A stretch of 64,000 nucleotides of DNA from Roseibacillus sp. (GTDB lineage Bacteria > Verrucomicrobiota > Verrucomicrobiia > Verrucomicrobiales > Akkermansiaceae), in assembly GCA_051251855.1 (NCBI GenBank), contig JBPOGI010000002.1, positions 96,001 to 160,000 of the forward strand, written 5' to 3'. A program made the position numbers and the translations under genes. Each line of letters opens with the position of its first letter. Position 1 is the stretch's first letter. This document shows positions 39,196-47,330 of this stretch, piece after piece. The notes under the pieces were generated by a model, which worked only from the letters and a program-made list of their open reading frames with translations, searched no databases and was not told the DNA's origin.

Positions 39196-42100
39196 ATGAA
39201 AATAAAACCACTATCGCTGATTTGCGCTGCGGGAGGATTCCTCCCGTTTAGCCTATTAGCTCAATATGATGCCGACCTCCTTGGTTACTGGCAGTTCGAG
39301 GGAGACCTTACAGAAGATTCAGGAGCAGGTGTCCATGATGGAACGGCCTTCGGAACCGTCGCCTACGCGGCTGGACCAACGGCTGCCTTTGGACAATCTG
39401 TTTCATTTCCTGCCGCAGATGCAGCTGCCGTACCACCTGTCGATCCCAGTGGAGTGATCGTCGATAATACAAAAAGCAGTGAGCTCGGTTACGTCAATAC
39501 CTTCGATGATGGCATTTCTGATGCCCTTTCCATCTCCTTCTGGGCAAGTGGCCTTCCCGGCAACTGGTCTCCCTTTATTTCGAAAAGAGGAGAGGATAAT
39601 CTGGGCTACCAAGTCCGTAGGCATTCGACCACGCCCAACGCTACTTTTACCCTTAGGGGTACTGACGGGGAGGAAGATCCTCAGGGGTCAATTGACATCT
39701 CGACTGGGCAACCCGTTTGGACACACTACGCCGCTACTTGGAATGGTGTCACCGGCGAGCGCCGTCTTTATGTGAACGGAGTGGAAGATACCGCCGTTTC
39801 TCAGAGCGCAGATTTCATTTCCGGCACCGCTGGCCAAGGTCCTGATCTTGCCACAGACAATTGGCTCACCTTCGGTATGCGTCACCGAGAGCCCACCACT
39901 CCCACTGTTTTTCAAAACTTCTTTGCGGGAGATATGGATGACATTGCGATTTGGAATCGTGAAATCAGTAGTACTGAAGCCTTCCAACTTGCACAGGCTC
40001 CGCTTGACGACATTTTGCTCGAGACGGACGCGGACGGAGACGGCCTCTTCGCTTCTCAGGAGGCGGCCTTTGGTACCTCAGATGATCCAGCTGATGCCAA
40101 TTCCAACGATTTTGATGGCGATGGTGTGAGTGACTACGACGAATTCGTAAAAGGCGGCGATGGCGCCAATGACGATGACTTTGACATGGATGGTCTCACT
40201 AATCTTCAAGAGACTTCTGGCTCAGCCAACCCTTGGACTTCAGGCGTGAGTGGCGCAACACCAGGAGAGACTACTGACTGGTGTGTCGCGGACTCTGATG
40301 GCGATGGCATCGACGATGGTGAAGAGGTTGTTGCGGGTGTTGACGGTTTTGTGACCGATCCCAACAGCAGAGATACCGATGGCGATGGCTTTGCTGACGG
40401 TGCGGAGCTTGCGGAGGGTTCCGACCCCACAGATGCGAACTCTCTCCCTCCCATCACCACTGGACTGGTCGGCTATTGGGAATTTGAAAATGACCTCGTT
40501 GAAACATCAGGCGAGCATGCTCCAGGTACTCATGATGGTGCCACCACGGACGGATTCCCAGCGGAATTCGGCACAGGCCCCACTGTATTGGATGAAGGAG
40601 TCCTCGGCGATTTCGGAAGTTCCTTGAACACAGTCGCGGAGGGCACCAGCTATGGTGTCTACGTTCTTGGGTCCAATGCCCAAGAGACAGCAGGCTACGT
40701 CGATACTTTCGACGCTGGAATTGGCAACGAATTCACGGTGTCTCTCTGGGCGAAAGGCTGGCCTGGGGCTAACTGGGATCCGTTCATCTCCAAACGAGGA
40801 GAAACCAATCAAGGTTTTCAAATCCGGAGACGCGGAAATACCACTAATGCAACCTTCACCTTGCGCCAGACTTTAGGAGAGGATGACCCCAATGTCGGCA
40901 ACAACGCGGGAGGTGGCCAAACAGGCACAACCGGCGTTCCTGTCTGGAAGCACTACCTCGGGACTTGGAATGGCACTACGGGAGAAAGAAAGCTCTATGT
41001 GGATGGAGTTCTCTCCTTCACGATCACGGGTGACTTTGAGACTGGTGCTGGGGTGAGCGCTGCTACCAACTATTGGATGACCTTTGGAAGCCGCCACAAC
41101 AATGCCGACTTCACTCCTACTGAAGGGGACGTAAACGGTATTTTCAGTAACCTCTCATTCGAGGGTGAGCTCGATGACATCGCCTTCTGGCATCGCGAGT
41201 TGAAACCTACTGAGGCCGCTCAATTGAGCACCGCGCCTCTGTCCTTCATTCTCACTCAAACGGATGCGGATGCGGACGGACTCTTTGCTACTCAGGAAGC
41301 CGAGTTCGGCACCTCTGACAATGACTCTGATTCCGATGATGATGGCATTGATGATTTGGCAGAGTTCCTGAAGGGCAGTGACGGTGCCGTCGATGATGAC
41401 CCTGACATGGACGGCCTCCTGAACTCCCAAGAGAGTTCAGGTTCAGCGAACCCGTTTGTCGCTGGTGTCAATGTGGGGCTTCCTGGAACAGAGACCACCG
41501 ACTGGTGTGTTGCTGACTCGGATAACGACGGCATCAACGACGGCGATGAGGTTGGTTCTGTGAATGGCTTTGTGACCGACCCGAACAATGCAGACACTGA
41601 CGGTGACGGCTTCTCGGACGGCGCTGAGCTGGCTGCGACTCCTCCAACGGATCCACTGGATCCCCTGAGCAAAGGAACCGACTGGGAAAAAGGTCTCTGC
41701 GGTTACTGGCAGTTCGACGACGACCTCACTGATAGCGGGGTTCTCGGATTGGACGGTATCATGCAAGGTCTCGACACTACTGAAACCTATGCAACCGGTC
41801 AGTTTGGCAGCGCCATTGACTTCGACAAGCTCAACGAGCAGCGCGTGCAGATCACCGGAAATGAGAACCTCCTCGACGGCACTGGCAGCGACTTCACTGT
41901 TTCTGCTTGGGTTCAAATCGATGCCTTTGACCAGAACTGGCAGGCGATTATCTCCAAAGGAGACGAACCCACCGACTGGCGTCTAGCGAGATATAATAAT
42001 TCCAATGGACCTGCCTTTGTTGGCGGTAACGCAGATGTCCCGGGTAACGGGGATGGCGCGGCTAACACGGCAACTGCCAACCTACATCCCGTTAACGACG

Positions 42101-42645
42101 GCTCTTGGCATCACGTTGTTGGAGTGACGAAAAACGGTGTATCTTCCAGCCTTTGGGTGGATGGTATGTTAGTTGAGACTAAGTTAGGCGATACAACGGT
42201 TATTACTGATTCCGCGAATAGCGTTCTCATCGGAGGAAACCCAGATCATGCTGGAGATGGAGGCGGAGCCTACCGTTCTTGGGGTGGCAACATTGATGAT
42301 GTCGCAGTCTGGAAACGGGCTTTGACGGATAATGAAGTCACGACCCTCTTCTACGATGGTAATGACCTTCAGTATCTCATCGACAACGATGTCACTCCGA
42401 CCGATCCACCGATCCTCGCCGACGTCGCCATTGCTGATTGTTACTTCGATGGAGCCAACTTCAGCGTAGATGTGACCGGACTTGCTCCGACCGTCAACTA
42501 CGTGATGAAGCGGAGCTTGCTGTTGGATGGCACGGATTGGGCAGATGTGGGAACTCAGTTCACTGGGGGAGCCACTAACACCTTCGTTGATCCCGCTCCA
42601 GTAGCTAAGGCCTTCTACCAAATCTTCGAGGTAGCAGCGCCTTAA
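39196..42645 (+). CDS. Secreted surface protein: three LamG-like domains separated by DxDxDG (TSP3-like Ca-binding) repeats
   Basis: Three GYW(Q/E)F...DD(I/V)AxWxRxL modules; duplicated TDWCVADSDxDG..GFVTDPN..DTDGDGF linkers; signal peptide. Confidence 0.88.
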   Translation: MKIKPLSLICAAGGFLPFSLLAQYDADLLGYWQFEGDLTEDSGAGVHDGTAFGTVAYAAGPTAAFGQSVSFPAADAAAVPPVDPSGVIVDNTKSSELGYVNTFDDGISDALSISFWASGLPGNWSPFISKRGEDNLGYQVRRHSTTPNATFTLRGTDGEEDPQGSIDISTGQPVWTHYAATWNGVTGERRLYVNGVEDTAVSQSADFISGTAGQGPDLATDNWLTFGMRHREPTTPTVFQNFFAGDMDDIAIWNREISSTEAFQLAQAPLDDILLETDADGDGLFASQEAAFGTSDDPADANSNDFDGDGVSDYDEFVKGGDGANDDDFDMDGLTNLQETSGSANPWTSGVSGATPGETTDWCVADSDGDGIDDGEEVVAGVDGFVTDPNSRDTDGDGFADGAELAEGSDPTDANSLPPITTGLVGYWEFENDLVETSGEHAPGTHDGATTDGFPAEFGTGPTVLDEGVLGDFGSSLNTVAEGTSYGVYVLGSNAQETAGYVDTFDAGIGNEFTVSLWAKGWPGANWDPFISKRGETNQGFQIRRRGNTTNATFTLRQTLGEDDPNVGNNAGGGQTGTTGVPVWKHYLGTWNGTTGERKLYVDGVLSFTITGDFETGAGVSAATNYWMTFGSRHNNADFTPTEGDVNGIFSNLSFEGELDDIAFWHRELKPTEAAQLSTAPLSFILTQTDADADGLFATQEAEFGTSDNDSDSDDDGIDDLAEFLKGSDGAVDDDPDMDGLLNSQESSGSANPFVAGVNVGLPGTETTDWCVADSDNDGINDGDEVGSVNGFVTDPNNADTDGDGFSDGAELAATPPTDPLDPLSKGTDWEKGLCGYWQFDDDLTDSGVLGLDGIMQGLDTTETYATGQFGSAIDFDKLNEQRVQITGNENLLDGTGSDFTVSAWVQIDAFDQNWQAIISKGDEPTDWRLARYNNSNGPAFVGGNADVPGNGDGAANTATANLHPVNDGSWHHVVGVTKNGVSSSLWVDGMLVETKLGDTTVITDSANSVLIGGNPDHAGDGGGAYRSWGGNIDDVAVWKRALTDNEVTTLFYDGNDLQYLIDNDVTPTDPPILADVAIADCYFDGANFSVDVTGLAPTVNYVMKRSLLLDGTDWADVGTQFTGGATNTFVDPAPVAKAFYQIFEVAAP

Positions 42646-45144: not shown

Positions 45145-46164
45145 CTAGGGATTTTCAGTGATTTGTTGCTGAATGTAGGGCCCAAAGTCAGAGGGAAGCA
45201 AGATGGTGACTTTTTCGAGGCCATCGCCCATCGGTTCGGTCGTTCTATTTTCTTCCAAAGGGGTAAAGGGGAGCAGGTTGATGAGGTCCCCAGTTAGTAA
45301 TTGGTGGGTGATTCCAACGCGATCGGTGGCTTGTTGGTAGGAGTATTGGTAACCGTTGGTGACGGCCTGGAAATCTAACAAGGGCGTGGAGCTTGCTAAG
45401 TCTGGATGAGTTCCTGCGGCGAACTCGATTCCATTGGCCCAACCGTCGTCGTCGGCATCGTCTGCGAAGGCAACTTCGCTACTTGTGCTGAGATTTTCGG
45501 AGACCCAAGCGGCATAATCTGTCCCTGCGGGGGCGGGCTCTGCGACGTTAATGGCAGCCCGGATGAGATTGATGTTGGTGGTTCCCAAAGAGCCTGAAGA
45601 AAGTGGGACGTCGTTGTGTCGAGTCACCAGGTTGGAACCATCGGTTGCATCAACAACGACAATACGTCTCCGATTAGAGGAACCTAGAGAGCCTGGGGGG
45701 CTGCTGGCGGGAAAGCCGCTGAAGAGGCTGAAGCTTTCTCTTGGGAGGGTTCGATCAGCTGCAGCATCCAAGCCCCAGAGGGTGTAGTTATTATTAACGC
45801 TGAGGTTGATGATATTGCGGTCTTCTCCAACGGGTTCCAGCGAGAGGGCGATGTATTCGATCTCGATGCCATTGTCGTTTTTTCCTTGGTTAGCGCCGCG
45901 GCTGGAGCTCTCAAAGAAGTCGATGATGTTGTCTCCCAACTGAGAGACCATGGTTCCTCAGCTGGGTCACCAAGGGGTGAAGTAGACAATGACGGCCACT
46001 TTACCCTCGAGTTGAGAAAGGGAGGTGTCGGTGAGGTTTTGGAGGGTGTTTCCGCTGGTTGAGGAGCTGATGCTAAAGCTTTGGTCGGCGATGGAGTCGC
46101 CCGGATTGGGAACTGCGTTAGCAAAGGTAGTAGAGAGGAGGAGGCTGAGTAAAAGACGGTTCAT
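45145..46164 (-). CDS. Secreted TlpA/thioredoxin-like protein with two in-frame TGA codons at the CxxC site (putative UxxU selenoprotein, 339 aa)
   Basis: ORFs 45967-46164 and 45145-45951 share a frame; junction TGG TGA CCC AGC TGA GGA ACC ATG gives SLSQLEGKVAVIVYFTPW-U-PS-U-GTM; IEYIALSLE strand follows; C-terminal DYAAW..DADDDGWANGIEFAAGTHP module. Confidence 0.75.
45926..45951 (-). promoter_or_regulatory. Putative bacterial SECIS hairpin
   Basis: AUG-GUCUCUC-AGUU-GGGAGAC-AA-CAU: 7 bp stem plus 3 bp extension, G at loop position 2; loop begins 16 and 25 nt after the two UGAs. Confidence 0.55.
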
Positions 46165-46169
46165 GGACT

Positions 46170-47330
46170 CTAGAATTGATGGGAAATCGCAAGGCGGCTG
46201 ACCAAGAAGTGGCGGTCTTGATAGAGACCTGAGAAGAATTCATTGTCGGCGCCGAGGGCTCCGTAGTTGCTATCGAAGAAGCCGAAGGAAAGTCGAACCG
46301 ATGTTTCGGATCCTTTCCAGGCAAGGCTGGCGCTGATTTCAGAGGAGTCGAGTTCGGGAGCAGCAGTATTGAATCCAGCGGTGGTGAACTCGCCGGAGTC
46401 GTGGTAAATACGAGCGCCTAAGCCAGCGTGCCAACCGGAGGCGATTTCGTAGTTGAGATTGAGGCCCCCGTAGTAGGCTTCGAAGTTGGGGTTTTCGTAA
46501 GTGGCTCCGACTTGGCCTCTCAAGGTGAGCTTGTCGGTCATGGCCCATGCCCAATTGTTCTGCAGTTGATAGCGGACTTGACGATCGGTGGTTCCGGTCG
46601 CGCGGAAGATGAGCTGAGTTTTGAGATTTTCGTTAAGCGCTTGTTCCCAATTGAGGGAGCCCGAATAGGTGATGAAATCGCTGCGAGTGGGAACGGGCTC
46701 GGGTCGAAAGGTGATGGGGTTGGGGACCCGGCTCCAAGCGGGAACGATTTCGTCTTGGCCATAACTAAAACTGGCGGTGAGGCGTCCCCCCCGACGATAG
46801 TCCCACACGACTCCTAAGTCGTAGGCCCAGCCATAAGGTTCGGCGGCATCGTAGCCCGCCACGCTCCCTGCTCCGCCAACAAATTGGTCGTAGTATTCTG
46901 CAATCCAAATGGATTGGTAGTCTGCGAAGCCATCATAATAGCGACCTCCTCCGCTGACGGAGAGGGTGTCGGTGGCTTGGTAGGCGAGAGTGAGGCTGGT
47001 GCCCCAGGTGTTTTCTTGTCTCTCGATGGGTAAGGTGGCTCCAACGGGATCGGTGTAGTTGATATATTGCTCGGTGTAGTATCCGTTGACGGTGAGTGTG
47101 ATGTCATCGACCTCGTGCTCAAAGGTTTGGGAAGTTCGGCCAACCCAGATGTCTTCGTTGTAGAGGGCTTCGTATTCGGAGTCGAAGCGCTGGGAGCCGC
47201 TAAAGAGGGAAGTGAGCCAAGATGAGGTTTCTTCGCTACTTTCTGTAGCTTCATCATAGACATCGTTGCTGAGGTCTCCTGCGAAAAGAGATACAGGAGC
47301 AAGGAGGAAAGGAAGGAGTGAAAATTTCAT
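46170..47330 (-). CDS. Outer-membrane beta-barrel protein, DUF3570-like
   Basis: Signal peptide from ATG 47330, alternating aromatic beta-strands, C-terminal RLAISHQF; sits between the DUF4266-like and thioredoxin-like genes. Confidence 0.7.
   Translation of the reverse strand: MKFSLLPFLLAPVSLFAGDLSNDVYDEATESSEETSSWLTSLFSGSQRFDSEYEALYNEDIWVGRTSQTFEHEVDDITLTVNGYYTEQYINYTDPVGATLPIERQENTWGTSLTLAYQATDTLSVSGGGRYYDGFADYQSIWIAEYYDQFVGGAGSVAGYDAAEPYGWAYDLGVVWDYRRGGRLTASFSYGQDEIVPAWSRVPNPITFRPEPVPTRSDFITYSGSLNWEQALNENLKTQLIFRATGTTDRQVRYQLQNNWAWAMTDKLTLRGQVGATYENPNFEAYYGGLNLNYEIASGWHAGLGARIYHDSGEFTTAGFNTAAPELDSSEISASLAWKGSETSVRLSFGFFDSNYGALGADNEFFSGLYQDRHFLVSRLAISHQF

Follow-up and report, generated by a model that had tools for sequence, protein, structure and literature searches.

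The window analysed here is a stretch of 64,000 nucleotides on contig C6 of a Roseibacillus sp. genome that is 4.96 Mb in size and 95% complete. Three of its genes, all on the minus strand and in the order lipoprotein, barrel, thioredoxin, are described below (Table 1). The thioredoxin frame comprises 340 codons and terminates with TAG; its only internal stops are two TGA codons, 66 and 69, in the context TGG TGA CCC AGC TGA GGA ACC ATG (V-Y-F-T-P-W-*-P-S-*-G-T-M). Open reading frames of 65 and 268 aa thus share one frame and are joined through both TGAs, as described in a first-pass annotation made from the sequence alone. Promoter, terminator and Rfam scans gave no signal above chance.

Two further genes of the window may be mentioned. 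A fusion of cytochrome c and PQQ glucose/sorbosone dehydrogenase is encoded downstream (44726-43287, minus strand); it also lies downstream in locus L027 and is not among the main recurrent neighbours. At 39196-42645 (plus strand) a secreted protein of 1149 aa with three LamG-like domains and TSP3 repeats is encoded.

Table 1. Features of the three-gene locus, in window coordinates
Feature	Position	Strand	Basis or remarks
Lipoprotein, 69 aa	47560-47351	-	lipobox Cys16, conserved Cys44, tail GGG-C65-A-S-C68-H
Probable outer-membrane β-barrel, 386 aa	47330-46170	-	Atlas neighbours; no Pfam family
Full thioredoxin gene	46164-45145	-	339 aa if both TGA are read as Sec; full-length Cys and Sec homologs
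Signal peptide, residues 1-17	46164-46114	-	hydrophobic core, A-N-A, no lipobox Cys; by eye
TlpA/ResA/Prx-like thioredoxin-fold domain, residues 18-212	46113-45529	-	AlphaFold, Foldseek, VIA-align
TGA codon 66, first redox position	45969-45967	-	TGA in 37 of 52 loci, TGC/TGT in 15 of 52
TGA codon 69, second redox position	45960-45958	-	TGA in 24 of 52 loci, TGC/TGT in 28 of 52
Putative SECIS hairpin	45948-45931	-	7-bp stem, loop AGUU, -10.3 kcal/mol
C-terminal module, DxDxDG repeat and β-sandwich	45519-45148	-	AlphaFold; recurrent in the genome

TGA codons at the two redox positions

A reassigned genetic code is ruled out, because 364 of the 1595 frames that span 400 aa or more in the whole genome are closed by TGA, and in the homologs TGA aligns to Cys, not Trp. 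Within the window, the four TGAs that had been named as ordinary stops (10387, 20513, 29115 and 30162) indeed each close an open frame of 159-1063 aa. The reads also agree with the assembly: the deep data set X4 is free of any other letter across 45947-46846, although X4 is possibly the source of the window DNA and hence not independent. The best-covering sets are seawater metagenomes, which may likewise be the source, and none of the sets listed is RNA; contig X7 was left out of the check as both TGAs lie too close to its end.

To place the gene in its family we searched related genomes. An initial search of 61 relatives yielded eight true homologs, four with two TGAs and four with one, and a profile search of 401 genomes of the family matched 51. 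A phylum-wide sample of 401 gave, apart from the window genome, two weak matches only. With three weak matches (G699, G701 and G717) dropped and two genomes of another family added, 52 loci were scored; the SCO-like L030 was likewise left out of the counts. Writing U for TGA, the redox motif is UxxU in 24 loci, UxxC in 13 (W-U in 12 and T-U in one, G651), CxxC in 15 and CxxU in none, while TAA or TAG stands at neither position in any of the 52. Full-length homologs with Cys or TGA at both sites, anticipated by the first-pass annotation, are thus found.

The earlier caveat that the window holds no sel genes is answered by the genome, which encodes tRNA-Sec (UCA), selA, selB and selD, each above its curated cut-off, with an in-frame TGA in selD too. 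selA is present in 36 of the 37 TGA-bearing genomes, and the remaining one (G651, 72% complete) has selB; neither gene was seen in 11 of 13 Cys-only genomes (89-98% complete), and both are present in the other two. Overall, 125 of the 401 family genomes carry selA. As judged from these alignments the TGA pair is beyond chance, since 23 further genomes have it at the corresponding positions and the Cys homologs have TGC/TGT there. Two chance nonsense mutations are also unlikely, as had been argued, since every stop is a TGA that takes the place of a Cys codon in a Sec-positive genome.

Both sides of the motif appear to be maintained in the family. In eight pairs of Sec-form relatives dN/dS amounts to 0.06-0.35 on both sides of the TGAs. 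For the window gene paired with its nearest relatives the ratio is saturated or carries no information, one pair giving 0.70 in the 5' half. The proposed pseudogene test by dN/dS therefore indicates purifying selection in the relatives and says little about the window copy itself. A separate start of the 3' half at ATG 45951, which is preceded by GAGGA at a distance of just 3 nt, had been considered possible, but such a start is not conserved: an ATG within four codons of the second site occurs in 7 of the 24 UxxU genes and is absent from 17. A 3' half started alone would moreover lack the signal peptide and the active site.

The prediction that annotation pipelines split the gene into two hypothetical genes is borne out. 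Sec forms are stored cut, as seven other database hits of 263-271 aa that begin past the motif and, in NCBI, as 59 + 212-aa pairs of 'hypothetical protein', while intact Cys alleles are named 'thioredoxin family protein' there. Many profile hits likewise begin downstream of the redox motif.

Sister loci can differ in state, as seen for L051 and L054 and for L058/L060 and L052/L053; in the latter case the UxxC loci L058/L060 are nearly identical to the intact CxxC alleles. When both redox columns are masked for tree building, 7 changes are required to explain the three states and 4 to explain the UxxU label; these counts do not distinguish gain of Sec from its loss. Sec loss or gain is possibly under way in L052/L053, which are CxxC although their genomes (G616, G489) are Sec-positive, and in L071 (G458), where the UGA is kept with a decayed hairpin (-1.5 kcal/mol, CAA codon).

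A single hairpin downstream of both UGAs

The published model of the bacterial SECIS, as given in PMC13188914, comprises a loop of 3-9 nt, a stem of 4-16 bp, a spacing of 16-37 nt, a G within the first two loop positions and an MFE of -7.5 or lower. The hairpin of the window gene, with its loop 25 nt past UGA66 and 16 nt past UGA69, conforms to this model in every respect for both UGAs, UGA69 lying at the lower spacing limit. Of 2000 synonymous recodings only 24 fold as stably as the native hairpin, and the same holds for one of 333 in-frame segments taken along the gene. This is further supported by covariation across nine genes, in which 5 of the 7 pairs changed on both sides (0.607, compared to 0.227 for shuffled alignments, 0 of 500 as high, and at most 0.306 for slid registers); two of the nine, including the window gene, enter in a 4-nt loop register shifted by one. 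RNAalifold recovers the same helix unaided.

The hairpin, whose loop in the family reads AG[G/U]U, follows the presence of UGA. Its median energy is -8.4 in 36 Sec genes and -4.2 in 15 Cys genes, a comparison whose significance is overstated as kin are not independent. The pattern CAGnTnG is found in 22 of 24 UxxU, 10 of 12 UxxC and 1 of 15 CxxC genes. The Gln codon of the loop is CAG in 32 cases and CAA in one, versus 179 CAG and 206 CAA elsewhere in the same genes. Weak hairpins among the Sec genes include those of L022 and L039 (-3.7 each) and of L071.

The same loop lies downstream of the UGA in selD, in two unrelated thioredoxins with WUPPC and in further candidate genes from the window genome. 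In the two W-U-P-P-C thioredoxin-like frames, at genome positions C1:1584111 and C11:42440 (both plus strand), the hairpin again lies at 25 nt, and the second Cys remains Cys despite being within SECIS reach. In-frame TGAs with the lineage hairpin further occur at C11:191993 (-), C6:417091 (+), C6:711917 (+), C9:357797 (+), C1:1392628 (-) and C7:209947 (-); the contexts at these six sites are KTYG-U-QMN, which resembles the start of MiaB, DDL-U-SV in a large protein, GGG-U-GAA, PP-U-DC, GVF-U-PGY and T-U-GPC.

Independent evidence comes from the lipoprotein gene. Its first tail Cys is replaced by TGA in 6 of the 40 loci in which the lipoprotein end is visible (L066, L069, L073, L074, L075 and L078), so that these forms end GGG-U-x-x-C. 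A CAGTTGG hairpin lies 23-24 nt past this UGA, at and behind the stop codon, in 5 of the 6 Sec forms, while the best hairpin carries a CAGTTGG loop in none of the 34 Cys forms. Because no protein constrains the RNA behind a stop codon, this argues that the hairpin is the SECIS of the lineage. Sec would thus have been recruited into two genes of the module, and the Sec-form lipoprotein is probably a second uncatalogued selenoprotein family.

In the naked window RNA an alternative helix of about -19.6 kcal/mol (MFE) pairs UGA69 with the 5' arm and loop of the SECIS. The helix is strong in the window copy but not conserved, with -4.7 to -15.6 in the remaining UxxU genes and comparable energies in the Cys forms, and a role as a conserved regulator that hides UGA69 is unsupported. 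It should melt once UGA66 is inside the ribosome.

The simplest reading is that a single hairpin would serve both UGAs, as has been suggested for UXXU hydrogenases in PMC13582414. With one shared hairpin, UxxC could become UxxU by a single base change. The double-UGA gene is very probably a UxxU selenoprotein by these comparisons, and we are confident, given the strong comparative support, that it would be decoded through the single hairpin to one 339-aa U-P-S-U protein. Machinery, homologs and hairpin all support the exported protein with U66 and U69 that the first-pass annotation had proposed; it had overlooked the hairpin, the three-gene module and the second selenoprotein.

The predicted exported thioredoxin and its putative barrel and lipoprotein partners

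N-termini similar to the putative signal peptide are found across the family. AlphaFold, run with a 9-sequence alignment (mean pLDDT 80.6), predicts that residues 18-212 adopt a TlpA/ResA/Prx-type fold, followed by a β-rich tail. The best matches in Foldseek and VIA-align are ResA, DipZ, DsbE-like proteins, AhpE/Bcp and TlpA, ranked close together (best VIA-align match: Z 14.4, rmsd 3.1, 147 aligned). The TlpA/ResA pattern recognised earlier from the sequence is thus also suggested by the predicted structure.

Sequence models hardly reach the family. PF00578 matches weakly (E 7e-4; 20.1-21 bits against a cut-off of 26), the window protein stays below the cut-offs of both PF00578 and PF08534 (20-21 vs 26 bits), and none of nine members attains any cut-off among the Pfam and NCBIfam models, selenoprotein models included. 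SelL-type and other selenoprotein models tested gave no match, and NF002854, NF047696 and TIGR00385 remain far under their cut-offs (best E 0.05-0.18). The peroxiredoxin motif PxxxTxxC/U, as listed in PMC13188914, is absent from the window protein, which reads F-T-P-W-U-P-S-U.

The C-terminal module recurs in 63 ORFs of the genome, in 48 of which no more than 40 aa separate it from the C-terminus; it ends in an aromatic-x-Arg strand, sits on many large proteins and has no Pfam hit. Relatives carry Ig-like or choice-of-anchor D tails in place of the DxDxDG module, which is probably a generic secretion or display module and a candidate for such a role in Verrucomicrobiota.

The Atlas neighbours of the barrel are porin-like barrels, with a recognition score under the mark of the tool. 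The barrel gene lies upstream of the thioredoxin gene in 48 of 51 loci, one miss being a contig end. A scan with the barrel alignment retrieved 80 loci with mostly Verrucomicrobiota titles, which probably overlap with the 52-locus set; the thioredoxin motif is directly downstream in 64 of them (UxxU 21, UxxC 9, CxxC 34), upstream in 9, cut in 3 and lacking in 4. Records titled Bifidobacterium, Bifidobacteriaceae or Akkermansia (L149, L173, L112 and L151) hold a Verrucomicrobiota-type module and may be mislabelled bins.

We then modelled the barrel together with the lipoprotein. The complex scores 0.86, compared to 0.00 for the best of three controls; 116 of 157 solved complexes attain the mark for this score, as against 2 of 215 mismatched pairs, counts that apply only roughly to our own alignments. 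The runs show at least 61% contact agreement and a partner pLDDT of at least 60, and on many strands of the barrel every second residue (i, i+2) is in contact. The model supports binding of the two proteins, though its score may stem from a resemblance to barrel-plug complexes already solved, and suggests that the lipoprotein could be a plug in the barrel lumen. The Cys residues of the lipoprotein tail lie outside the confident contacts. Heme binding by the CxxCH end of the lipoprotein is ruled out, since many members end in R, Q or N instead.

A related arrangement has been described. DUF4266, DUF3570, a thioredoxin-like protein and ApbE, with or without DsbD, form an extracytosolic redox module according to PMC8238504, and the DUF4266/DUF3570 module is also mentioned in bioRxiv 10.1101/2023.06.07.544157. 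PF12094 and PF14086 have no hit on the window genes. Profile comparison with hhalign gives P 2.5e-4 (probability 43%) for the lipoprotein with DUF4266 and a weak P 0.014-0.036 (above 30 and 20 shuffles) for the barrel with DUF3570; both profiles score above all column-shuffled controls. Among 11 distant homologs, three lipoproteins match DUF4266 below the cut-off (E 7e-4 to 0.045) and none gives a DUF3570 Pfam hit. Neither apbE nor dsbD was matched in the 80 loci, 45 of them with full 4-kb flanks, while positive-control loci were hit; the ApbE and DsbD genes of the genome are located elsewhere, and the flavinylation motif [ST]GA[ST] occurs in 3 of 46 barrels. The lipoprotein is probably, by profile similarity, a remote DUF4266 relative, and the trio is best read as a diverged version of the DUF4266/DUF3570/thioredoxin module in which ApbE is missing.

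Proposed role, alternatives and known systems

In the mechanism that we propose, SelB and Sec-tRNA(UCA) would bind the single hairpin and insert Sec at UGA66 and then at UGA69. The signal peptide would export the protein, and the C-terminal module would probably place it at the cell surface or envelope. The small lipoprotein, in or on the outer-membrane barrel, would bear a C-terminal CxxC (UxxC in some relatives), with which the thioredoxin domain may swap electrons via a diselenide/diselenol cycle. Diselenides are hard to reduce by thiol donors, which counts against such a cycle. Taken as a whole, UxxU decoding by a shared SECIS, export and a redox role in the three-gene module is the best explanation, and we regard it as likely. 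That the thioredoxin serves as the dedicated thiol/selenol-disulfide oxidoreductase of a module related to DUF4266/DUF3570, with the ApbE branch missing, seems somewhat better than an even guess. More speculatively, and rather doubtfully, the trio might constitute a relay of thiols and selenols across the Verrucomicrobiota outer membrane that uses neither flavin nor heme: the barrel-plugging lipoprotein would use its (U/C)xxC tail to pass electrons to the thioredoxin, which would be displayed at the surface and work through a catalytic diselenide, with selenium in two partners and one hairpin for two codons 9 nt apart.

Alternatively, both Sec may be inserted while UxxU serves as a site for a soft metal (Cu, Hg) or as a stable structural diselenide, in which case the module would handle metal or selenium species with no electron relay. 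SCO/SenC proteins score only about 2 Z below the top structural matches (Z 12.2 vs 14.4), three Cys besides that of the lipobox are conserved in the lipoprotein, and an invariant Arg165-Arg166 precedes the strand at which TlpA, ResA and CcmG have their cis-Pro loop. A metal-binding UxxU family, NF041115, is also part of the inventory in PMC13188914. On the other hand, the W-C-x-x-C opens helix 1, which is the thioredoxin arrangement, and the family alignment contains no invariant His, while the SCO motif is CxxxC plus His. Distant module members carry ordinary TlpA-like WFAxWCPFC proteins, and by eye no transporter or metal gene recurs in the largest neighbour clusters of the 80 loci. We therefore consider this explanation unlikely.

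A still smaller chance falls to decoding of one or both UGAs as Cys via tRNA-ReC (SelC*), which would make the product UxxC or CxxC. According to PMC13582414, which urges caution on this point, tRNA-ReC is found in about 56% of the genomes with UXXU hydrogenases. In the window genome, exactly one UCA tRNA, one selB and one cysS exceed their cut-offs, and 21 of the 23 other UxxU genomes have exactly one tRNA-Sec match; all 22 tRNA-Sec sequences read from them carry the UCA anticodon and discriminator G. Discriminator G is the serine-identity base, and the tRNA-ReC system comprises a second SelC-like tRNA with an extra SelB or CysRS. Neither was seen among the candidates scored in this genome by models not specific for tRNA-ReC, and the suggested check for a Cys-inserting UCA tRNA found none among the 117-150 candidate sites scored per genome, part of the total. 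Elsewhere in the window genome, ten tRNA genes lie within 1.5 kb at genome C10:114076-115599, possibly a mobile tRNA array, and a second tRNA-Trp(CCA) call of 87 nt, beside the 76-nt copy, lies at C1:686953-687039. Finally, a pseudogene, or two genes encoding a 65-aa peptide up to the first TGA and a 268-aa protein from ATG 45951, is hardly credible: for all the GAGGA motif and the database fragments, the stops are invariably TGA at Cys positions in Sec-positive genomes, both halves evolve under purifying selection, 17 of 24 UxxU genes miss the internal ATG and near-identical alleles exist as UxxC and intact CxxC.

The shared-SECIS selenoprotein reading adds two apparently uncatalogued families, an exported thioredoxin and a small lipoprotein, from a lineage whose genes are stored in databases as split hypothetical proteins. 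The natural allelic series CxxC/UxxC/UxxU with its sister pairs asks what a second Sec gains outside the cytoplasm. The gene, with spacings of 25 and 16 nt, also makes a compact system for asking if two UGAs can share a SECIS, a question of bacterial recoding raised in PMC13582414. The predicted complex of barrel and lipoprotein can be tested as a model of the module, and perhaps also of the unexplained DUF4266/DUF3570 system.

The rarity of UxxU, stressed in the first-pass annotation, was somewhat overrated. In SelL, a UxxU family, the motif forms a diselenide. The 2026 inventory of 119 families, PMC13188914, assigns UxxU to three bacterial families, namely the Prx-like thiol:disulfide oxidoreductases, one metal-binding protein and one protein of the FmdB family, and Group 4 hydrogenases are added by PMC13582414; UxxU/UxxC selenoproteins also appear in PMC9312934 and PMC2398784. 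Among the papers listed by literature searches none describes the family or Sec in the module, although supplements of the cited papers could list members. Among the accessible rows of PMC13188914 none names the window protein, a DUF4266-like lipoprotein or the operon, while its generic PF00578/PF08534 rows could cover the window protein as a class.

Compared with the Prx-like/SelL selenoproteins (PF00578, UxxC/UxxU, WP_010940744.1; PMC13188914 and PMC9312934), the window family shares a thioredoxin/Prx-like fold, UxxC or UxxU with one or two Sec and a weak PF00578 match. It differs in its signal peptide, the large C-terminal module, the fixed barrel/lipoprotein operon and a score below the PF00578 cut-off, a separation from SelL and WP_010940744.1 that is drawn from their descriptions. 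ResA, TlpA and CcmG (DsbE) are the best structural matches, likewise exported and with W-C-x-x-C at helix 1. Unlike these proteins, with which it shares 10-20% identity, the window protein has Sec at both positions, long insertions and a cleavable signal instead of a membrane anchor, and its gene does not lie beside cytochrome c maturation genes. As in the UXXU Group 4 [NiFeSe] hydrogenases (PMC13582414), two UGAs lie three codons apart with a proposed shared SECIS, in a mosaic of Sec and Cys types. In the hydrogenases, however, the motif is a metal ligand and tRNA-ReC is enriched, whereas none was seen here, and the intermediate state in our family is always UxxC and never CxxU. The DUF4266/DUF3570 module similarly combines a small secreted protein with C-terminal Cys, a partner of about 400 aa and an adjacent thioredoxin, but its tail is CxC, in contrast to CxxC/UxxC here, and the present module uses Sec. 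Thus, while motif class and fold are known, the family itself is apparently uncatalogued and belongs to a distinct barrel-lipoprotein-thioredoxin module.
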